This document shows positions 18,885-62,642 of a stretch of DNA of 64,000 bases, one piece after another. The notes below the pieces were generated by a model. The model saw only the letters and a list, made by a program, of their open reading frames with translations, was not told the DNA's origin and did no database searches. The DNA lies in NCBI GenBank assembly GCA_964551435.1, contig CAZKBS010000001.1:285422-349421 (forward strand), in the 5' to 3' direction. The DNA is from an uncultured Micavibrio sp. (GTDB lineage Bacteria > Pseudomonadota > Alphaproteobacteria > Micavibrionales > UBA2020). Position numbers and translations under genes: made by a program. How positions within the stretch are numbered: the first letter of the stretch is position 1; each line of letters opens with the position of its first letter.

Positions 18885-19505
18885 ATGAGCGAAGACTGGC
18901 AAAAAATAGATGTGGAGCGCACGGCGCGTATTCTGTCGGAAGTAAATCCGCATCTGGAACCTGTGCCGTTCAGCATGGAAAGCACTACTATCCGCAGCCA
19001 GCGGCTTTCGTTTTACCGTGACTATGAATTTCTGGAACTGACGGATCTTTCCGCTGTACCGGCGGTGCGCAAATATGCGATTTACAAGCCGGGCGATGTG
19101 AACGTCATCAACTGGACGAACCAGACGATATACGAAACCAACGAGAAAGCGCCGATCAATATCAATGCGCGTAACGTTGTCGAATACGTGAAGTTTTTCT
19201 TTGGCTACGTGCGCGGCCGTCATGGCCGTTTCATGATTATCGAGACAATTGACGATATCCGCTGGCAAGTTGAACCGCCGCTGCAGGGTCGCAAGGTCAT
19301 GCAGCAGATGCTGGAGCCCGTGACGCTGCTGAGCGAGGATGATGACGGGACATTCAATCTGGAAGCCTTCATGGTTTTCAAAGACTCGCTTTTCAAAACC
19401 CGCGTGCATGTGAAGCCTGACGGCCTTGTCAGCATGTCGGAGGAAGAATTGAAAATCGAAGGCATGCCTATTCTTCAGGACTCGGCGCTTCAGCACTATG
19501 CCTGA
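18885..19505 (+). CDS. hypothetical protein (206 aa), first gene right of the putative origin
   Basis: ATG preceded by GGGGTAAGGG. The amino-acid composition is balanced. There is no signal peptide and no motif I recognise. GC is lower than in the backbone. Confidence 0.6.
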   Translation: MSEDWQKIDVERTARILSEVNPHLEPVPFSMESTTIRSQRLSFYRDYEFLELTDLSAVPAVRKYAIYKPGDVNVINWTNQTIYETNEKAPININARNVVEYVKFFFGYVRGRHGRFMIIETIDDIRWQVEPPLQGRKVMQQMLEPVTLLSEDDDGTFNLEAFMVFKDSLFKTRVHVKPDGLVSMSEEELKIEGMPILQDSALQHYA

Positions 19506-19554
19506 GAAAACCCACGGATAGCACATCCTTTACGCCCATTTTGCGGTACCTGCC

Positions 19555-20616
19555 ATGCGCTGCCCTGCCCCATTTTTCGAACCGCCGCAGGCGCTGGAAC
19601 ATAAACCGTCTTTTGCGGATATACCCTTATCCCTGTGCAAAAAAATAGCCGATATCTGCGGCAGTCCGGTTATGGATGGCGCTATTTTGCATGGCAGCCT
19701 TTCGGCGACAGCGGGTTTTGTGCTGACGCTACAGAATGGTCAAAAAATATTTGCCAAGGGCAGCCACCCGCAAGAAATGTCGCACGGCACGCTCCATATC
19801 CGCAGCGAAGCCTATGCGTATCAGGTATTGCCCGCGCTTAAATCCGTCGCGCCGCGTTTTATCGGACTTGTCAGTGATGATAACGAAGACGGCTGGACGC
19901 TGGGTCTTTGGGATTATATCGCGCGCGATAAAGCAAACGCCCCCGATCTTGATATTGCAGATGTGATGCGAAAGCTCGTTAGCGTACACAAGAGCGAGAT
20001 ACCCGTGACGTTCACGACAAGTGCCGCAGCGCATAACTATTTGTCGCTTTTTCTGCGTGACGAAAAAAAATGGCAGCGTGTGCGCGGCGAGGCGAAAATA
20101 AAAGACAAGCTGTTGTCGGTTTTCGAAGATGAACAGGCGCACCTGTGGCTTGATCGGCAGCTGGATAGTTTATGTGCGATGCAAGCTGCAGTGCCGGCGT
20201 TTGATTTTCAAACCGGATTGATACACGGCGATTTGCGTCTGGATAATATTTTGGCAGCGCTGACGCATACATATATTGTCGATTGGCCGAACGCCTGCCG
20301 CGGGCCCGTCGTTTTTGATGTGCTGATGCTTTCGGTGCATCTGGAATCTTTGGGCTATGGGCGGGCAGAGGATTTTATTTCTTTATATGACGCCGCCGCA
20401 GGCACGGCTTTTGCACAAAAGAATAACCAAGAGCTGATGATCATGGCCGCCAGCATGGCCGGATTTTTTGCCGATCAGGTCTACAGGGCAGTGCCCGAAA
20501 AAATGCCGCGACTGCGCTGGATGCAAAAATCCTTATTTTTCGGGCTGTTAAGCCTGATGAGTCGTCATGGGCGAATCGAATCACCCCCGCGTATGTCAGG
20601 GCTTTTGCGTATTTGA
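19555..20616 (+). CDS. APH/choline-kinase-fold phosphotransferase (protein-kinase-like superfamily)
   Basis: Catalytic loop LIHGDLRLDNIL, metal-binding YIVDWPNA, and an N-lobe Lys in KIFAKG. It lies 49 nt downstream of the preceding ORF. Confidence 0.7.
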   Translation: MRCPAPFFEPPQALEHKPSFADIPLSLCKKIADICGSPVMDGAILHGSLSATAGFVLTLQNGQKIFAKGSHPQEMSHGTLHIRSEAYAYQVLPALKSVAPRFIGLVSDDNEDGWTLGLWDYIARDKANAPDLDIADVMRKLVSVHKSEIPVTFTTSAAAHNYLSLFLRDEKKWQRVRGEAKIKDKLLSVFEDEQAHLWLDRQLDSLCAMQAAVPAFDFQTGLIHGDLRLDNILAALTHTYIVDWPNACRGPVVFDVLMLSVHLESLGYGRAEDFISLYDAAAGTAFAQKNNQELMIMAASMAGFFADQVYRAVPEKMPRLRWMQKSLFFGLLSLMSRHGRIESPPRMSGLLRI

Positions 20617-20895
20617 CACGCGATTATTTGAACCATTGTTCATTGCAGCATGGCAAAAAATGCCGATTTAATTACATAACTATAATATTTTGCTGCTTTT
20701 TTGCCTGAAAACACCGGATGTTAACCACCGCTACCGCATGATGAAGGGGCTAGGGGAAAAGCTGCCTGCTTCGGATAACAAAGATCGGACTGAACAGGAT
20801 ACCGGCACCAGAGGACTACAAAGGTATCTAAGGCCACAAGGCTGACACGACCGCGAACTTTGACTTCGGCACAGGCAAGGGAAAAAGGTGTGTAA

Positions 20896-21933
20896 ATGGC
20901 AAACGACGTTGATAAAGACAGCGACTTCAAACTGCCCAAGCCAGACAAGCAGCGTTTTCGCAGTAGTGCGGGCCGCCTCCGCAATGGCAAACACCTGTCC
21001 CACCGCGCCAGCATGGACTGGCGTTTGGACCAGCGCACCGTTTGCGACAAGCCGGACATCGCCGCTACCATCGTCTCCGTTGAAGAGCTAAAAGAAATCC
21101 TGCTGCAAAGCCGCACCGCCGAGCAGTTGATGACGGGCGATGCCGCCGCAAATCTGCATATTGTTTATGATGCGCAAGTACCTGCATCGCAATTTTACCC
21201 GCCACGCGAAGGCCGCGGTGCCACGATCACCCTGAACCCGTTCCGCCCACGCGGCGATTTGCTGAACATGCTGGCGCGCGAACTGCGCCGCAGCTGGCAA
21301 CATTTCCACGGCGCGCTGGTCAACCCGATGGATTACGAGCCGGACGAAGCTATTCTGGTCAACCGCGCGCAGCAGGCCGATGTTTTGATGGTTTCCATCA
21401 AGGTGGCGTGGGAGCTGAAACTGGGCGGCAACAGCGAAGCCTGGGATTATCTGGTCGGATCGCCGATGTCGGATGTGAGCCGTACGTTCGAAATCAAGGC
21501 GCAAACCGATTTCCGCAGCCTGAACAATGGCGAAGCGGCGCGTGCGGCCTATGATAAATTCTTCGAAGACAGCCGCACCAAGATCCATGACAAGCGCATC
21601 ATTCACCAAATGCTGCTGGATGAAGCGGGCTACATGAAATCGCAAAAAGAGCGCAGCCGTGTATCCATGGATTTGTTCAAGCGTCTGGGCGAACTGCCGT
21701 CGGGCCGCAACTATCTGTCGATGAACGCAACACGCACGCCGATGGATACCTGCTATGCGACGGTTGAAGACCGCTCCAATGCGAATTTCCTGTGGTTCAT
21801 CAAGTTCGAACGCAGCTTTCAGGAAAAAGAGCGGCAGATGATCGAAGAGTCGGTCAAGCTGTCCGCCGAAGTTGTCGACTTCGCACGCTTTGCCAGCGCG
21901 GCGCGCCGCCCGGGCAATGCTGAGCAAGCCTGA
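20896..21933 (+). CDS. hypothetical protein, zincin-like-domain paralog family, degenerate motif (RELRR)
   Basis: 345 aa, colinear with ORFs 21945, 58571 and 59620. Shared blocks are ...LHIVYD..., LNMLARELRRSWQ (21277-21291 = RELRR), QADVLMVSIKVAWEL and AARAAYDKFF. Confidence 0.65.
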   Translation: MANDVDKDSDFKLPKPDKQRFRSSAGRLRNGKHLSHRASMDWRLDQRTVCDKPDIAATIVSVEELKEILLQSRTAEQLMTGDAAANLHIVYDAQVPASQFYPPREGRGATITLNPFRPRGDLLNMLARELRRSWQHFHGALVNPMDYEPDEAILVNRAQQADVLMVSIKVAWELKLGGNSEAWDYLVGSPMSDVSRTFEIKAQTDFRSLNNGEAARAAYDKFFEDSRTKIHDKRIIHQMLLDEAGYMKSQKERSRVSMDLFKRLGELPSGRNYLSMNATRTPMDTCYATVEDRSNANFLWFIKFERSFQEKERQMIEESVKLSAEVVDFARFASAARRPGNAEQA

Positions 21934-21944
21934 AAGGACGCGCG

Positions 21945-22853
21945 ATGACGGCGGATATACCACAGCCGCCACGCATCGTTTTTCCGCTGTCGTATTTCAC
22001 CCAGAATGATGTACTGGAAATAAAAATTCCAGCGACCGCGCAGCCGCAGGCAAAAATATTTGCCGATGCCATGCAGCGTGTGTGCGGTTTTCTTTTGCAA
22101 TCACCATCGGGCCGTGCGCTGATACGCGCGGCGCTTTTGCGTGGCGTTCATATCGGCCTTGATCCGCTTTTGGAGCCGCAAACAAGTTTTTATTATCCGC
22201 TGCAAAAACGTCTGGATCTGGGTTATCAACCCGCGGCGCTGCAAACATCGCAAAAGGGTATCAGTCTTTATCTGGCCGGTATGACGGGGGGGTTGCGCCG
22301 GATATGGCAGCAAAGCCGTGCGCTGGCGCCGGATACGGCGCTGCGGCCCGAAGATTTCTTGCGCTATTGCCGTACGTTCGAAGCGGATGTTTGCGCCGTC
22401 ACGCATCTTGTCGCGTGGGAGCTGCGCGCGGCAGGCCCGTGTTTTTTCTGGCGTCACCTGCTGGCAGGCGTGGATGGCGATGTCGCGACATCTTTTGCGC
22501 GTGCGGCAAGCGCGCACCCGCGCCACCAGTTCGACGGTACCGCGCTGCGTGCGGCGTTTCTGGAGTGGTTTCAGGTGGCTGAGAGGGTGGATGCCTGCGA
22601 CCATCTGGCGCTCGAGATGATGGATATGGCGCTTTTGGGTCTGCGCGGCAGCGCCGGCGAGATTGGCCGCGCCAAGCTGGATGGCAACCGCATGAACATG
22701 CTCGGCGCTTTGCCGCAGGGTGGGAATTATTTGACCGGTATGCGTTTCCGCGCGGCACCGATGCGGCGCGGGTGCGATCCGTTTAACCGGACGCATCTAA
22801 AGCATATCCAGCACGACATCACCTATCTATCTGAAAACCAAAACAGTTTTTGA
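21945..22853 (+). CDS. hypothetical protein, zincin-like-domain paralog family, degenerate motif (GGLRR)
   Basis: 302 aa, starting 11 nt after the previous stop. Blocks are SPSGRALIRAALLRGVHIGLD, MTGGLRRIWQQ (22287-22301), EADVCAVTHLVAWEL, ALRAAFLEWF and the shared LG.LP.G.NYL. Confidence 0.6.
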   Translation: MTADIPQPPRIVFPLSYFTQNDVLEIKIPATAQPQAKIFADAMQRVCGFLLQSPSGRALIRAALLRGVHIGLDPLLEPQTSFYYPLQKRLDLGYQPAALQTSQKGISLYLAGMTGGLRRIWQQSRALAPDTALRPEDFLRYCRTFEADVCAVTHLVAWELRAAGPCFFWRHLLAGVDGDVATSFARAASAHPRHQFDGTALRAAFLEWFQVAERVDACDHLALEMMDMALLGLRGSAGEIGRAKLDGNRMNMLGALPQGGNYLTGMRFRAAPMRRGCDPFNRTHLKHIQHDITYLSENQNSF

Positions 22854-22859
22854 TATTTT

Positions 22860-22902
22860 TTGACATATCGCCTGAATCGCCGTAGTGTTAACGCATCGTT
22901 AA
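22860..22902 (+). promoter_or_regulatory. sigma70-type promoter overlapped by a TTAA-N7-TTAA (CtrA-type) box
   Basis: TTGACA 22860-22865, a 17-nt spacer, then TAGTGT 22883-22888. TTAAcgcatcgTTAA lies at 22888-22902, which is also the inverted repeat TGTTAAC-N5-GTTAACA. This is 25 nt upstream of ATG 22927. Confidence 0.45.
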
Positions 22903-22926
22903 CAATTCAAATTTTTGGGGTTCGTC

Positions 22927-23112
22927 ATGGCGAATGAGAACACGTTTAAAGAGTCCAAGCTGAAATCTGCCTTTCAAGGCGTTGCCGGCGGACTTTATGC
23001 CGCGGTTGGCGAAGACCCGAACATGGGCATGCAAACGGCGGGTTATATTTATGACCGCGCGAAGCTGGCAAAAGATCAGGTTGTCCAGAGTTTCAAAACC
23101 AAATTTGCCTGA
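22927..23112 (+). CDS. small hypothetical protein (61 aa)
   Basis: MANENTFKESKLKSAFQGVAGGLYAAVGEDPNMGMQTAGYIYDRAKLAKDQVVQSFKTKFA. It has a GGGG Shine-Dalgarno-like element and its own strong promoter. No family recognised. Confidence 0.5.
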   Translation: MANENTFKESKLKSAFQGVAGGLYAAVGEDPNMGMQTAGYIYDRAKLAKDQVVQSFKTKFA

Positions 23113-23169
23113 TAATGTTTCCCCGCGAAGGCGGGCAGCAAAAAAGTTCTTTGTAAAGTTGAAGCCTGC

Positions 23170-23853
23170 TTACTGCATATCGAGTAAGTGGGCTTCGCCT
23201 CTTTTGGCGAGCCACTCACGCGTCATCAGCATGGCGTTTTCGCGGTCGCGACGGCTGAGGCGCGAATACACTGAATCGCGGTCGCGACGCGCGGCTTCTT
23301 TTTCCGGGCCATCAGGATAGCTAATCACCGCCAGCTGCAGCCACATCAGCGCTTTGATGCTGTCGTGTGCTGTGCCGTTACCGGTAAAGTTCATGACTCC
23401 GACGTGGTGCTGCGCAAGCGCGCGGCCTTGTTCAGCGCAGAGAATCAGCAAATCATAGGCTTTTTTGGGGTCTTTTTCGACGCCCTGCCCAAGGTTGTAC
23501 ATGATGCCGAGGATTTCTTTGGCGCCTGTATGGCCGCCGTTGGCGAGCAGTTCAAGGTGCGGCAGCGCACGTTCGTACTGGCCGTCTTTATAGAGCTTCA
23601 ACACAGCTTCGTATGTCAGCGCGACGGGTTTGCCGTCTTCGTCGGTTTCTTCTTCTTCGGCGACCTCGCCGTCTTTGTCTTCTTCTTTCAAAAGAAGACC
23701 TTTCCGGATGCTTTGATATTCGGATACGTCCGGCATGGTGTCGCTGCGCGTACCGATTTCAAAAACGGATTCCTGCGCCTGCGCAGGCAGCGATATTGCT
23801 GCCATGAGGGCGAGAGCGGAAACAGTCAGGAGCGGCATCAGAAGGCGGGTCAT
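23170..23853 (-). CDS. secreted Sel1-repeat (TPR-like) protein
   Basis: Start at ATG 23853 gives a signal peptide (MTRLLMPLLTVSALALMAAISLPAQA). An acidic tract (EEDKDGEVAEEEETDEDG) follows, then Sel1-type repeats (AKEILGIMYNLGQGVEKDPKKAYDLLILCAEQG..AQHHVGVM). Confidence 0.8.
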   Translation of the reverse strand: MTRLLMPLLTVSALALMAAISLPAQAQESVFEIGTRSDTMPDVSEYQSIRKGLLLKEEDKDGEVAEEEETDEDGKPVALTYEAVLKLYKDGQYERALPHLELLANGGHTGAKEILGIMYNLGQGVEKDPKKAYDLLILCAEQGRALAQHHVGVMNFTGNGTAHDSIKALMWLQLAVISYPDGPEKEAARRDRDSVYSRLSRRDRENAMLMTREWLAKRGEAHLLDMQ

Positions 23854-23925
23854 GACGGAAAAATCCTTGTTCAAATCGCTCTTACTATTATAAGGCCTTT
23901 TGCTCGAAAGGCAAAAGTCCCGCAA

Positions 23926-56578: not shown

Positions 56579-57766
56579 TTGGCGCGCGCGCTGGAATGTT
56601 TTTGCGTGTCGCTGCTGCTGGGCCTGACGTCTTTCGGCGGGCCGGTTGCGCATATTGGCTATTTCGAAAAAAACTATGTCCAGCGGCGCGCCTGGGTTTC
56701 CGCCGCGCAATTCGCGCAGCTGACGGCGCTGTGTCAGCTTTTGCCCGGCCCTGCCAGCAGCCAGATGAATTTTTTGATCGGCTGGATGCGTGGCGGTGCG
56801 GCCGGTGCCTGTTTGTCCTTTCTCGGCTTTACGCTGCCATCCGTTCTGCTGATGCTGGCCGTGGCTGTTTTTGCCCATCAGCTGACCGGATTTGCCGCTG
56901 TTGTCACCACGATGAAACTGGTGGCTGCCGTGATTGTGGCGCAGGCCGTATGGTCGATGGCGCGGCGGCTGTGCCCCGATGCGCGCAGGCGTATCGTTGC
57001 CGCGCTTTCTACCGCCGCTTGCGCGCTTGCGGGCGGTATTTATGTGCAGATAGCCGTCATGGCGCTCGGCGCGGCGGCGGGCAGCTGGCGGGCAAAAGCC
57101 GCGGCTGATGCAGCCTCGGCAGATACCACCTTGCCTTGCCTGATATCCGGCGCGTCTGCGTGGCGGGCATTGCGGGTTTTTGTGCTGTTGCTGGTTGCGC
57201 TGCCCGTCCTTGCCTTTTTCCTTGGTACGGGGCAGAGCGATGCGATATCCCCTGCGGCGATGGCGGATGTGTTTTACCGCAGCGGCGCACTGGTTTTTGG
57301 CGGCGGGCATGTGGTTTTGCCGCTGCTACACGACGCGCTGCCGTCCCTGCGGCAGGATATCATGATGTACTACGGCTTTGCGCAGGGTTTGCCGGGCCCG
57401 CTGTTTGCGATTGCGCCGGCGCTGGGCTATGCCCTGCTGCCGTCATCGCCGCTGATGGGCGCGGCGCTTGCCGTGACTTTCATTTTTCTACCCGGATTTC
57501 TGGTGGCGATGGCGGGGTATTATTTCTGGCAACGCCTTTTGGCCATGCCGCGATTGATGGCGGTGCTGTCGGGACTTTCGGCGGCGGTGGTGGGTATCCT
57601 GGCGGGGACGCTGATAGACCCTGTGCTGACGGGCACCATTCACCATGTGCAGGATGTCGTTTTTATTGCGGCTTGCTTCGCGCTGGTTCAGTGGAAAAAC
57701 ATTCCCGCGCCAGCGGTCATCCCAATCTGCGCGGTTTATGTCTGGGCCGGAGGTATGATTGCATGA
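56579..57766 (+). CDS. chrA: chromate transporter ChrA family
   Basis: LGLTSFGGPVAHIGYF...CQLLPGPASSQ, with a second repeat VFGGGHVVLPLL. The start is uncertain (TTG 56579, or ATG 56474 inside dxs). Confidence 0.85.
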   Translation: MARALECFCVSLLLGLTSFGGPVAHIGYFEKNYVQRRAWVSAAQFAQLTALCQLLPGPASSQMNFLIGWMRGGAAGACLSFLGFTLPSVLLMLAVAVFAHQLTGFAAVVTTMKLVAAVIVAQAVWSMARRLCPDARRRIVAALSTAACALAGGIYVQIAVMALGAAAGSWRAKAAADAASADTTLPCLISGASAWRALRVFVLLLVALPVLAFFLGTGQSDAISPAAMADVFYRSGALVFGGGHVVLPLLHDALPSLRQDIMMYYGFAQGLPGPLFAIAPALGYALLPSSPLMGAALAVTFIFLPGFLVAMAGYYFWQRLLAMPRLMAVLSGLSAAVVGILAGTLIDPVLTGTIHHVQDVVFIAACFALVQWKNIPAPAVIPICAVYVWAGGMIA

Positions 57767-58497
57767 CGCGCCAGCGGCTGGATCAGGCACTGGTTGAACG
57801 CGGCCTTGCCCCCAGCCGTGCGCGGGCGCAGGCCATGATACGTGCGGGTCATGTGATGGTTAGCGGCAAAGTGCAAACCAAACCGGCCGCAGAGGTCGCG
57901 GCGGCAGAAGATATCAGCATCAGCGGCGATGTGCACCCGTGGGTATCGCGCGGCGGTATCAAACTCGCCCATGCGCTCGATGTTTTCGCGCTGGATGTCG
58001 CGGGGGTGGTGTGTCTGGATCTTGGCGCCTCCACCGGCGGGTTTTGCGATGTGCTGCTGTCGCGTGGCGCGGCAAAAATTTATGCCGTGGATGTTGGACA
58101 GGGGCAGCTGCATGAAAAACTGCGGGGCGATACGCGCATTATCAATCTTGAATCCACCCACGCCAAAGACCTGACGCGCGCGCTGGTGCCCGATGCGCCC
58201 GATATACTGGTCGCGGATGTCAGTTTTATCAGCCTGACCAAGGTGCTGCCGTTTGTGCTGCCGCTGCTGTCGGCGTCCGCGCGGGCGGTGCTGCTGGTCA
58301 AGCCGCAGTTCGAATCATCCCCCGCCGATATCGGCAAAGGCGGCATTGTGCGGGACGAAGCTGTGCAGGCCGCCGCCGTGACCAGCGTGAGCGATTTCCT
58401 GCGCGCGGCGGGCTGGCGGGTCAGCCCTGCCATCGACAGCCCCGTCACCGGCGGCGACGGTAACCGCGAATATTTAATTTATGCATATAAATCATAG
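57763..58497 (+). CDS. tlyA: TlyA-family rRNA (cytidine-2'-O)-methyltransferase
   Basis: ATGA overlap with the chrA stop. S4 domain (RLDQALVERGLAPSRARAQAMIRAGHVMVSG), SAM motif LDLGASTGGF, and a C-terminal GNREYLI. Confidence 0.9.
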   Translation: MTRQRLDQALVERGLAPSRARAQAMIRAGHVMVSGKVQTKPAAEVAAAEDISISGDVHPWVSRGGIKLAHALDVFALDVAGVVCLDLGASTGGFCDVLLSRGAAKIYAVDVGQGQLHEKLRGDTRIINLESTHAKDLTRALVPDAPDILVADVSFISLTKVLPFVLPLLSASARAVLLVKPQFESSPADIGKGGIVRDEAVQAAAVTSVSDFLRAAGWRVSPAIDSPVTGGDGNREYLIYAYKS

Positions 58498-58570: not shown

Positions 58571-59623
58571 ATGGCAGATAACGATTCACCTTCGGATTCG
58601 GACAAAATGGCCGCTCTGCGCAAGGCCGTGCTGGCTGAGGTGCGCCTGACGCCGCTGGGCCGCGCCCTGCTCCGCGAACTGGGCCGTTTGCGGGTGAAGA
58701 TCGTTTTTACGCCCGATGTGCCGGGCGGCGAAGACGGCAACAAACTTTTCGGTCTGTTCGATCCGCGCATCAATACATTGTTTGTCGATGCAAACGCGCC
58801 GCGCGCGGCGCAGCTCCATTTCTTCGCGCATGAAGCGCGCCACGCCCTGCAAATGGAGCAGGGCCGCAAGCTCACGGATGCGGGCAAAAACACATCTGTC
58901 GATTATTTCTCCCCCGCTGCGCAGCTATATCTGATGCGTCTGCGCGAACTGGACGCCGATACCTTCGCCGTCTATTTCGTCGCGCAGCATGACATGCACA
59001 CGCGCAGCAATCATTTCGCGCATATGGCCAAACGTGGTATTCTGTTTGGCAGAGACCCCTATGACCGCGCCACTCTCTATGAGGCGTTCCAGAAAAAATG
59101 GGAAGAGCTCGGCAAGCCGCGCGACCTGACGGCCCCCACGCGCGCCGCGGCCGATGCGTTTTTACAAAACACCGCGCTTTTAAATACCTATAATAACTTC
59201 GCCCTGCATGTGTGGGAAAATACGCTGCTGCAGGGTCTGAAGGATAATGCGCAAAAACCCGAAAGCAGTTTTGCGCGCGGCTTTCGCGCGATTATACGCG
59301 GCGCGCAAAACGCACAGACGGCGAAGAAAACAAAAACCGCCGGTGTGCGCGATATTTTTGCGCAGCATGCGGCAGCCTACAAAAAGATTTTGCCGCGCAG
59401 CCGTGTGCCGGATTATACGGGCGGCCAAAGCGCAGCAGCCTTTACCCGTCATGTATGCGACAAGCCCAAAGACGCCAATCCGTGGCATACCACGAATTTC
59501 CGCTATGAACGCGCGATGGACAGCTTTAGCCGCGCTATCGCCCATTACGCCGCGTTGCCGGAGGCTGCGAACAGCAATGCGCCGCCCCCCGCCGCACACA
59601 AAAAACGGGGGCCGCGCGCATGA
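58571..59623 (+). CDS. hypothetical protein, zincin-like-domain paralog family, intact HExxH (HEARH)
   Basis: 350 aa with TPLGRALLRELGRLRVKIVFTPD...TLFVDAN...LHFFAHEARHALQ (HEARH = 58829-58843), ELDADTF and AAADAFLQ. The C-terminus is basic (HKKRGPRA). Confidence 0.65.
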   Translation: MADNDSPSDSDKMAALRKAVLAEVRLTPLGRALLRELGRLRVKIVFTPDVPGGEDGNKLFGLFDPRINTLFVDANAPRAAQLHFFAHEARHALQMEQGRKLTDAGKNTSVDYFSPAAQLYLMRLRELDADTFAVYFVAQHDMHTRSNHFAHMAKRGILFGRDPYDRATLYEAFQKKWEELGKPRDLTAPTRAAADAFLQNTALLNTYNNFALHVWENTLLQGLKDNAQKPESSFARGFRAIIRGAQNAQTAKKTKTAGVRDIFAQHAAAYKKILPRSRVPDYTGGQSAAAFTRHVCDKPKDANPWHTTNFRYERAMDSFSRAIAHYAALPEAANSNAPPPAAHKKRGPRA

Positions 59624-60744
59624 GCAGCCCTGTGAACACATCGGTTTCCCTGCGCGCGCGTTTGCGTGAAACAATTGTGCAATTTTGTCATGAACGCCTG
59701 CACGGCCGTGACAGCGACCGCCGTCAGCAGGCGATGGATATGCTCTATACGACGCCGGAGGGCAAAGCGCTTCTGGATACCGCCGCGCAATATAATGTGC
59801 CGATCCGCTTTATGCGGGCGGGCAAGCTGGGCGCGCTTGGCTCCCTTTCCAAAAACCCCGAAGACGCCACCGTCGGTGTGTCGGTTGCCAATACCGGCAA
59901 TTTGCCGCAGATGGTGCTGACGCTGTATCATGAACTTCGGCATCTCAAACAACAGGAAGAACAGGGCGATATTAAAAACGGCGTGTTTATGGGGCTCAAG
60001 AATACACGGCGCTCCCATATGCTTTCGCTGATGCAGGAGGCCGACGCGTTTACGAGCGAGGCCATGTTCGCCCTCGATAGAAACGCGGCCGGCGATAAAA
60101 CGTATTTAAACAGCGTGATGAACCCCAGACACGACCTCGCCCGCGTGACCGCGCAGTATATCAAAACAGCGCCTGTGGCCTATGAGCAGGACAGGGATGC
60201 TTTCCGCCGCGGGCTTTTCACGCATATCATGCTTGAAGGTCTGGCGGGGTATTCTGCTTCTTATTTCCTCGGATATGCTACCGCCTTCCGCAAGGCCGCG
60301 ACTAAGGACGAATTCACAGCGCTGGTGGGCGATTTGCGTGAACTGTGCAAACCTGATAATACCGGCGAACTGGCGTCAGCTTACGGGACGTCTTATGTCG
60401 AAAAAATGTCGATGACGGCGCTCGCCCGCGTTTTCTTCAAAACCTTGCCGATAGCCGAACAGCAGGCGCTGGAGCTGGTCGATAAAAGCGTGCGCAGTAT
60501 CGGCAAAATGACCGAAGAGCAATATCAGAAAACCCGCGAAGCCGCGACAGCCGCGCTGATTTCCGTTTATCAGACCGACCCGCGCGATCTTGCATATTCA
60601 AACGAAGCCGATACACTGCGCCGCGCGTTATCCGCCGCGGCTGCGGACAGCGCGCCGGATCTGCGCGCAGCCTTTGCCAAGGTCGCCGCGCGTAAAATGC
60701 AGCCGCCTGCGGGGTTTGCGCCGCGCGCGCCGCGTCCGCTCTAG
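59620..60744 (+). CDS. hypothetical protein, zincin-like-domain paralog family, intact HExxH (HELRH)
   Basis: ATGA overlap with the previous gene. 374 aa with TPEGKALLDTAAQYNVPIRF...VGVSVANTG...LTLYHELRHLKQQ (HELRH = 59929-59943), QEADAFTSEAMF and DRDAFRRGLF. Confidence 0.65.
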   Translation: MSSPVNTSVSLRARLRETIVQFCHERLHGRDSDRRQQAMDMLYTTPEGKALLDTAAQYNVPIRFMRAGKLGALGSLSKNPEDATVGVSVANTGNLPQMVLTLYHELRHLKQQEEQGDIKNGVFMGLKNTRRSHMLSLMQEADAFTSEAMFALDRNAAGDKTYLNSVMNPRHDLARVTAQYIKTAPVAYEQDRDAFRRGLFTHIMLEGLAGYSASYFLGYATAFRKAATKDEFTALVGDLRELCKPDNTGELASAYGTSYVEKMSMTALARVFFKTLPIAEQQALELVDKSVRSIGKMTEEQYQKTREAATAALISVYQTDPRDLAYSNEADTLRRALSAAAADSAPDLRAAFAKVAARKMQPPAGFAPRAPRPL

Positions 60745-60761
60745 GCGTTCTTTAAAGACTG

Positions 60762-62114: not shown

Positions 62115-62642
62115 TCAGTTCGGACGGCGGATATTGGCGCGTATAGGGCAGCAGGTGATGGTGATGCTGCGGGGCAGCCCTTGGGTGATGGTATCGATCT
62201 CCTGCCGCAGCTGCGCTTTTTGCGCATCATGCCGCGCGGCTTCAGCTGCGCCCTGTACAGGCACAATCTGCATCGCAAGGCTGTCATAGCCCAGTTGCAC
62301 GGCCAGCTCACGCACACTCTGCCCCTGATTGTTGGTCAGATCCGGATTGGCGCCGCGTTTCAGCAGCAGCGATACGCATTCGACCGCGCACCAGCCGACG
62401 GCCACGTGCAGCGCCGTCCAGCCGCTGTCGTCGCGCGCATTGACAATGTCGGGCAGCAGGGTGATATGGCTTTCCAGTGCCGTGCGCAGCGCCTCCGCAT
62501 CACCGCAGCTGCAGGCTTCGAGCACTTCGGTGCAGGCGCTGGCCAGCTCGCTCTTGCGCATGCCGCCGACACCCTTGACGGCGGCCTTGGGGGCGCGGCG
62601 GGGGCTGAATGATTCGCGGGCGTGCGGGGTTAATTGCGGCAT
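62115..62642 (-). CDS. ankyrin-repeat protein (175 aa)
   Basis: DDSGWTALHVAVGWCAVECVSLLLKRGANPDLTNNQGQSVRELAVQLGYDSLA forms ankyrin repeats. The C-terminus is basic (RANIRRPN). Confidence 0.7.
   Translation of the reverse strand: MPQLTPHARESFSPRRAPKAAVKGVGGMRKSELASACTEVLEACSCGDAEALRTALESHITLLPDIVNARDDSGWTALHVAVGWCAVECVSLLLKRGANPDLTNNQGQSVRELAVQLGYDSLAMQIVPVQGAAEAARHDAQKAQLRQEIDTITQGLPRSITITCCPIRANIRRPN

Follow-up and report, generated by a model that had tools for sequence, protein, structure and literature searches.

A tandem pair of putative DUF6782 metallopeptidases at a conserved core locus of uncultured Alphaproteobacteria

Results

An overlapping gene pair under purifying selection

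Within a 64,000-nucleotide stretch of the genome of an uncultured Micavibrio sp. (contig CAZKBS010000001.1; the whole stretch is hereafter called the window), we investigated two adjacent genes, A and B, that encode putative metallopeptidases of the DUF6782 family. Their coordinates are listed in Table 1, together with those of the other features discussed below. A first-pass annotation, made from the letters alone, had described two open reading frames that overlap by ATGA and carry HEARH and HELRH motifs, and we recovered the frames, the overlap and both motifs exactly where it had placed them. At the junction (gcgcgcATGAgc), the start codon of B (ATG) shares nucleotides with the stop codon of A (TGA), an arrangement that implies translational coupling of the two genes.

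Searches for related sequences recovered 14 relatives of A, at about 38-92% identity, and 17 of B, at 50-97% identity; the species-representative ones belong to uncultured Alphaproteobacteria, including Micavibrio sp. and Rhodospirillaceae bacterium UBA8982. Both genes are under purifying selection at the level of a housekeeping gene: compared with the closest syntenic relative (locus L001), the ratio of nonsynonymous to synonymous substitution rates (dN/dS) was 0.12 (A), 0.083 (B) and, for the neighboring tlyA, 0.119. The synonymous rate (dS) in the same comparison (L001, 10001-12174) was 0.82 for B, more than twice the values for A (0.35) and tlyA (0.21), and, from this higher dS, the A/B junction may be a recombination breakpoint. 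The GC content around the pair is 0.58-0.60, with a window average of 0.573; this near-average composition, together with the deep synteny of the locus (see below), led us to reject a foreign origin of the pair.

Table 1. Features of the A/B locus and of other parts of the window. Positions are those of the window; residue numbers are those of the respective protein. aa, amino acids; pI, isoelectric point; ORF, open reading frame; AF2, AlphaFold2 model; pLDDT, predicted local distance difference test; GC3, GC content at third codon positions.
Feature	Position	Strand	Basis
Gene A, HExxH-type DUF6782, 350 aa, pI 9.85	58571-59623	+	ORF, PF20573, AF2, dN/dS
Gene B, HExxH-type DUF6782, 374 aa, pI 9.13	59620-60744	+	ORF, PF20573, AF2, dN/dS
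ATGA start/stop overlap of A and B	59620-59623	+	Sequence
A: HEARH (H87-E88-x-x-H91), putative zinc-binding/catalytic motif on helix 78-103, followed by Q94	58829-58843	+	Conservation, AF2
A: E126-L-D128-A-D130 on helix 115-144; E126 putative third zinc ligand	58946-58960	+	Conservation, covariation
A: tail, residues 326-350, basic, Pro-rich, disordered	59546-59620	+	pLDDT <50 at 341-350; charge
B: HELRH (H104-E105-x-x-H108) on helix 95-115, followed by Q111	59929-59943	+	Conservation, AF2
B: E140-A-D142-A on helix 129-156; E140 putative third zinc ligand	60037-60048	+	Conservation, covariation
B: tail, residues 350-374, basic, Pro-rich, disordered	60667-60741	+	pLDDT <50 at 360-374; charge
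tlyA (S4 + FtsJ rRNA methyltransferase), co-directional upstream, probable operon partner	57763-58497	+	ORF, context
Paralog C, RExxR-type DUF6782, ARELRR, Q for the ligand Glu, pseudo-enzyme branch	20896-21933	+	PF20573
Paralog D, DUF6782, TGGLRR instead of HExxH	21945-22853	+	PF20573
APH-type kinase-like gene beside C/D	19555-20616	+	PF01636, 51.4 bits; conserved in L014
Sel1-repeat protein beside C/D	23170-23925	-	PF08238, 44.1 bits; conserved in L014
Large ORF, 541 aa	10041-11666	+	Coding-like GC3
Large ORF, 1108 aa	34633-37959	+	Coding-like GC3
Large ORF, 395 aa	38264-39454	-	Coding-like GC3
Large ORF, 741 aa	42617-44845	-	Coding-like GC3

A putative zinc site with a covarying glutamate

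The HExxH motifs are not chance matches. In alignments that include the window copies, H87, E88, H91, E126, D128 and D130 are invariant among 15 A-type sequences, and H104, E105, H108, E140 and D142 among 17 B-type sequences, so that the motif is kept in the orthologs. Across 63 diverse HExxH-type family members sharing 14-34% identity, the invariant columns were exactly H87, E88, H91, Q94, E126 and D128.

An acidic block downstream of each motif had also been singled out as a possible source of a third metal ligand. The glutamate of this block lies 35 residues after the second histidine in A (H91-E126) and 32 residues after it in B (H108-E140). We examined this position in the domains of the best 150 representatives and the four window proteins, aligned to the family hidden Markov model (HMM). 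The glutamate of the downstream ExD was present in 71/71 HExxH domains, whereas in 40 RExxR domains the position was occupied by Q, A, T, I, H, S and other residues; the two classes are also clades, and these counts therefore do not represent independent events. All aligned domains, HExxH and RExxR alike, retain the aspartate two residues past this position. Such covariation with HExxH would be expected if the glutamate served a gluzincin as its third metal ligand and was freed from constraint when the two histidines had been replaced, a role that the acidic block therefore appears to play. A and B each carry a complete signature of a zinc metallopeptidase core, and we consider each of them most likely to be active as a gluzincin-type peptidase.

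Divergent C-terminal halves and conserved basic tails

Homology between A and B was detectable along some 136 columns at the N-terminus and no further (hhalign, E 7.7e-6), in agreement with the C-terminal divergence already remarked on in the first-pass annotation. Its description of basic, proline-rich tails was equally sound, the charge of the tails being conserved across both alignments: the last 25 residues carry a net charge of +1 to +7 in A-type proteins (15/15) and of +2 to +6 in B-type proteins (17/17). Neither a signal peptide nor a transmembrane segment was found in A or B, again as described before; the maximal Kyte-Doolittle mean over 19 residues was 0.71 for A and 0.97 for B.

All four window paralogs belong to a catalogued family

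The first-pass annotation had further grouped A and B with two motif-less genes elsewhere in the window (C and D, at 20.9-22.9 kb) into a four-member family, which it regarded as the best candidate in the window for an undescribed module. The grouping stands: all four proteins exceed the curated gathering threshold of PF20573 (DUF6782; 27 bits), with scores of 46.7 (A), 48.6 (B), 99.9 (C) and 69.5 bits (D), and nothing speaks against their membership. The novelty does not, since the same profile places all four in a family that is already labeled, albeit with no function assigned. Pfam describes DUF6782 as a "putative metallopeptidase family", and the name "DUF6782 family putative metallopeptidase" has already been given by NCBI to some relatives; no NCBIfam model matched any of the four window proteins, and our literature search for DUF6782 or PF20573 found no paper. 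When 1.84 billion cluster representatives were searched with a profile, 1,358 qualified as members at E <= 0.001 and, under the stricter cutoff of E <= 1e-10, 492. Within this family, A and B are anciently diverged paralogs.

Predicted structures and distant links to known peptidases

AlphaFold2 gave confident models of both proteins, with a pLDDT of 88.5 and a predicted template modeling score (pTM) of 0.88 for A, and values of 82.8 and 0.82, respectively, for B. Both models are predicted to comprise, in order, three strands (residues 43-47, 61-64 and 69-73 in A; 62-66, 74-77 and 86-91 in B), the helix bearing HExxH, the helix bearing the conserved glutamate, a C-terminal domain made of helices only and, last, a disordered tail. 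Two attributes of clan MA, an HExxH on an alpha-helix and a mixed beta-sheet preceding it, are thus present in the predicted fold of each protein. The invariant E126 and E140 are predicted to lie on the next long helix and would there complete a putative ligand site.

Comparison of the full-length family profile with the sequences of the PDB gave no match; the trimmed catalytic core alone did. A core profile built from 44 sequences (A7) matched IrrE (3dte, E 3.7e-5) and PprI (8slm, E 1.6e-4) over the strands and the HExxH helix, followed by MJ1213 chains (E 0.03), BepA and other zincins. Similarly, the 63 diverse members searched against Pfam weakly matched Peptidase_M91 (15 members, best E 1.9e-7), Peptidase_M78 (14, best 8.7e-7), DUF3920 (12), eCIS_core (7), SprT-like (2, best 3e-4), Tox-MPTase2 (1) and Tox-MPTase4 (1). 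The window proteins themselves did not reach the threshold of M78 (PF06114, 22 bits), for which A scored 13.6 bits (E 0.058) and B had no match, nor that of M91 (PF14891, 25 bits), for which B scored 15.6 bits (E 0.021) and A had no match. Since the family-level profile reaches IrrE while the window proteins stay below PF06114, the relationship is one of distant homology and not of membership in M78. On the evidence of these profiles, DUF6782 is a distinct family in the minimal-zincin neighborhood of M78 and M91, and A and B belong to neither.

The closest solved structures by sequence profile are those of the M78 proteins IrrE and PprI. Like ImmA, these cytoplasmic proteins carry no signal peptide, bind zinc through HExxH and a downstream glutamate, and cleave one specific repressor. 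A and B differ from them in having no adjacent or fused helix-turn-helix (HTH) partner and in their C-terminal helical domains, and the resemblance of the whole models to M78 structures in Foldseek is not significant. Moreover, a paralogous tandem pair is, to our knowledge, not an M78 trait. The type III effectors of the NleD/HopH1 type (M91) share the minimal HExxH zincin core, and one giant relative, P0151, passes PF14891 (27.4 bits against the cutoff of 25). Unlike these effectors, A and B reside in the core genome, are under strong purifying selection and show no effector-style context; neither the window nor the flanks of related loci revealed any type III secretion genes.

More remote are the MJ1213 chains (4qhf, 4qhj and 4qhi) and proabylysin (4jiu), which have the same small sheet and HExxH helix and matched at E values of 0.03-1.4, which are not significant. 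The eCIS_core/DUF4157 proteins also share the minimal zincin core, with weak, non-significant matches to 7 of the 63 members. DUF4157, too, carries an HExxHxxQ signature. DUF6782 proteins are three times longer than minimal zincin chains and have a dedicated C-terminal domain.

The pair occupies a conserved position downstream of tlyA

A lies directly upstream of B in 13/13 related loci, all of which have the pair between dxs(-chrA-tlyA) and ivd; B begins where A ends or immediately behind it. The gene order shared by all close relatives is xseB-ispA-...-dxs-chrA-tlyA-A-B, followed by ivd, a gene for an ankyrin protein and mgtE on the opposite strand. The gap between tlyA and A, which are on the same strand, is 73 bp in the window and 36 bp in L004. 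The pair had initially been judged to lie outside any operon context, a view that this conserved arrangement contradicts: A and B follow tlyA co-directionally at such a short distance that they are most simply explained as the tail of a dxs-chrA-tlyA operon. A scan for promoters and terminators around the pair revealed nothing above the expectation from shuffled sequences.

At one more distant locus (L013, 3807-7124; about 30% identity), three HExxH genes in the order B-like, A-like, B-like lie between dxs and ivd, without chrA or tlyA. All three encode HExxH and E-x-D-A, two of them have basic, proline-rich tails, and the tail of the A-like protein is weakly basic. Together with the conserved A-B order, this B-A-B arrangement at the same site indicates that the split between A and B is old and that their partnership has been kept. 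Elsewhere in the family, two DUF6782 domains occur within one polypeptide, as in P0164, P0208, P0167, P0155 and the giant proteins P0151 and P0177. The idea that these are fusions of A and B was not cleanly borne out, HMM scoring suggesting independent duplications. Two DUF6782 modules together are a recurrent solution in this family, and the recurring tandem arrangement points to a two-module mechanism.

Several further observations concern the surroundings of the pair. Between B and ivd, an additional gene of 187-203 aa without a Pfam match is found in L001 (12176-12787, minus strand) and L004 (12200-12763, minus strand); it is absent from the window (60745-60761) and from L006. The ankyrin-repeat protein (175 aa; 62115-62642, minus strand), unusual for a free-living bacterium, adjoins ivd in all syntenic loci, and a second ankyrin gene is present upstream near xseB in L001.

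Outside the syntenic loci, DUF6782 genes were again found among housekeeping genes: one was flanked by grpE and rho (L015), and the giant gene of P0151 by putA and ATP synthase genes. In an alphaproteobacterium encoding pyruvate:ferredoxin oxidoreductase (L016, 6787-11771), the genes lie between those for RNase HII and a ccrM-like methyltransferase on one side and a suf operon on the other; they encode a 707-aa protein with two near-duplicate domains and a 370-aa single-domain protein, followed by a 136-aa protein of no assigned family. No secretion, mobile-element, phage, plasmid or defense genes occurred in any of the five contexts inspected. PADLOC returned no match, PHROGs only noise (E >0.1), and tblastn with A and B as queries had no match among 72,556 plasmids.

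Motif-less paralogs beside kinase and Sel1 genes

Paralogs C and D belong to DUF6782 and lack the HExxH motif, for which they have ARELRR and TGGLRR, as had been noted before. C falls in a large RExxR branch that is very well conserved, for example in ARELRRHWQHRQGAL and DRSNANFLWFIKFERSF. Some of the RExxR proteins (P0133, P0137, P0139, P0141 and P0147) are about 450 aa long, with a strongly conserved N-terminal CRVAYTLNNxQPVxxTIIGxQPLFYMD and a C-terminal DRSNANFLWFIKFERSFRETE block, a high degree of conservation for a presumed dead enzyme.

The surroundings of C and D are shared with another locus. In both the window (18885-23925) and L014 (5028-10233), the cluster follows hemE and comprises a 202-206-aa gene without a Pfam match, the APH-type kinase gene, the C/D genes, the Sel1-repeat gene and prmA. 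The same domains are fused in P0151 (2,563 aa), which combines three Sel1 domains, two DUF6782 domains of the active type and an APH domain, and P0177 joins Sel1 to DUF6782. As for the remainder of the window, GC skew gave no signal for a replication origin near hemE and the C/D pair, a candidate we therefore dropped, and an Rfam scan of the whole window found no match. Four large ORFs with coding-like GC3 had no Pfam family at E <= 1e-5 (Table 1).

Discussion

The interpretation that we favor, and to which we give somewhat better than even chances, is that A and B are translationally coupled cytoplasmic gluzincins that, like IrrE and ImmA, subject a particular protein of the cell to limited proteolysis. 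Zinc would be bound by the two histidines of HExxH and by the glutamate 32-35 residues downstream on the next helix, the glutamate of HExxH would serve as the general base, and the substrate would dock onto the sheet of three strands that precedes the active-site helix. In addition, A and B each have a helical C-terminal domain of their own and a disordered basic tail. The two would be made together by translational coupling, probably from the distal part of a dxs-chrA-tlyA transcript, and probably act as a pair, possibly as a hetero-oligomer. The data themselves establish that A and B belong to DUF6782, that their motifs are conserved and covary, that the genes are syntenic, coupled and under purifying selection, and which fold topology is predicted; what we infer extends from zinc binding and proteolysis to their cytoplasmic location, their assembly and the nature of their substrate. 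That this would be site-specific intracellular proteolysis, rather than bulk degradation or intoxication, is suggested by the lack of an export signal, the core-genome site, the housekeeping-like evolution and the position of IrrE and PprI as the nearest relatives of solved structure.

Several points weigh against this interpretation. No HTH repressor of the ImmR/DdrO type, adjacent or fused, and indeed no HTH family, was found in any syntenic locus, so that no substrate candidate is visible next to the pair. Foldseek searches of the full models against the PDB gave no significant match, the best for A being PprI (E 0.54), with none for B, and the literature yielded no experiment on any DUF6782 member. 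The proteins with two DUF6782 domains, which look like independent duplications, support a joint action of two modules only loosely. Finally, A and B have a high pI and tails whose basic, disordered character is conserved; these features could reflect an export signal or an anchor to nucleic acid or membrane.

The first of these possibilities leads to the proposal of the first-pass annotation, in which A and B would be metalloprotease effectors or toxins. They would reach a prey or host cell by secretion or injection through a dedicated system that recognizes the basic, proline-rich tails, and the RExxR paralogs would be inactive decoys or neutralizers. Several features are in line with it: the weak matches of family members to Peptidase_M91 (the family of the effector NleD), eCIS_core and Tox-MPTase2/4, the giant fusions P0151 (Sel1 and an APH-type kinase domain) and P0177 (Sel1), the conservation of the disordered basic tails, the ankyrin and Sel1 proteins encoded in the window, and the name of one relative, Micavibrio sp., a genus of bacterial predators. 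Nevertheless, we consider this proposal unlikely. The proteins have no signal peptide, and the contexts examined contain no secretion-system, phage, plasmid or defense neighbors. Type IV secretion in particular would call for a positively charged C-terminal signal and a type IV system in the genome; the tails are basic and conserved, type IV secretion genes appeared neither in the window nor in those related loci that we inspected, and the plasmid search gave no homolog. The pair keeps the same core-genome position in relatives ranging from 92% to about 30% identity, B itself shows 50-97% conservation, and dN/dS is as low as that of tlyA, unlike what is seen in arms-race effectors; the window proteins also stay below the M91 threshold (15.6 against 25 bits). 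The strict core synteny and housekeeping dN/dS, together with the missing export signal and the lack of secretion, mobile or defense neighbors, thus speak against the effector or toxin claim.

Also counting against this proposal, Micavibrio aeruginosavorus ARL-13 is reported to lack type III and type IV secretion (PMC3189940). We attempted to map the pair onto the expression table of this strain; its dxs region is not syntenic with the window and no orthologs were assignable, which leaves the link to predation loose.

It is improbable, in our assessment, that A and B are instead proteases or hydrolases associated with nucleic acids, tethered by their basic tails and comparable to the DNA-protein-crosslink proteases of the SprT/Wss1 type or to PprI, which binds single-stranded DNA. 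The high pI of both proteins (9.85 and 9.13) and the conservation of their disordered, basic tails would suit such a role, as would the SprT-like matches of 2/63 family members (best E 3e-4) and the neighboring genes, tlyA (an rRNA methyltransferase) in the window and ccrM and RNase HII in L016. The best Foldseek match of A is PprI bound to single-stranded DNA; however, this match is not significant (E 0.54, TM-score, the template modeling score, 0.18-0.25). The similarities are all weak and confined to the shared minimal zincin core, and neither protein contains a recognizable DNA- or RNA-binding domain. Least probable is that the HExxH site binds metal without a peptidase role, in a metal-dependent scaffold or a hydrolase of a non-protein substrate: the literature we searched records no peptidase activity for any DUF6782 member, and one half of the family remains strongly conserved despite the loss of the site, which suggests a scaffold function independent of catalysis, but the motif glutamate and the third-ligand glutamate are invariant wherever the two histidines are present, as is typical of catalytic zincins and not of structural sites, and the nearest solved relatives are true peptidases.

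Limited intracellular proteolysis by A and B may also be part of something larger. The RExxR pair adjoins APH-type kinase and Sel1 genes in the window, and the corresponding domains are fused in P0151, which hints at a hitherto unrecognized alphaproteobacterial proteolytic signaling module in which A and B would be the proteases, C and D the pseudo-proteases, the APH-type protein a kinase and the Sel1 protein an adaptor. The change from histidine to arginine could then have created a site for an anion or phosphate that reads the product of the kinase. We offer this wider module as speculation, with a small chance of being right.

Our analysis adds three elements to the description of DUF6782: the split into HExxH proteins with the downstream glutamate and RExxR proteins, the conserved pairing of A and B, and the link to Sel1 and APH-type kinase domains. 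For annotation purposes, the yield is modest: A and B are best described as putative metallopeptidases of the DUF6782 family, their locus belongs to the conserved core, and the label of toxin is unwarranted on present evidence. The split between HExxH with glutamate and RExxR provides a natural experiment on the evolution of pseudo-proteases, and the family as a whole is placed between regulatory proteases such as IrrE and ImmA and effector proteases such as NleD. Should A and B prove active, they would offer a first handle on an uncharacterized family of about 1,360 cluster representatives (E <= 0.001).

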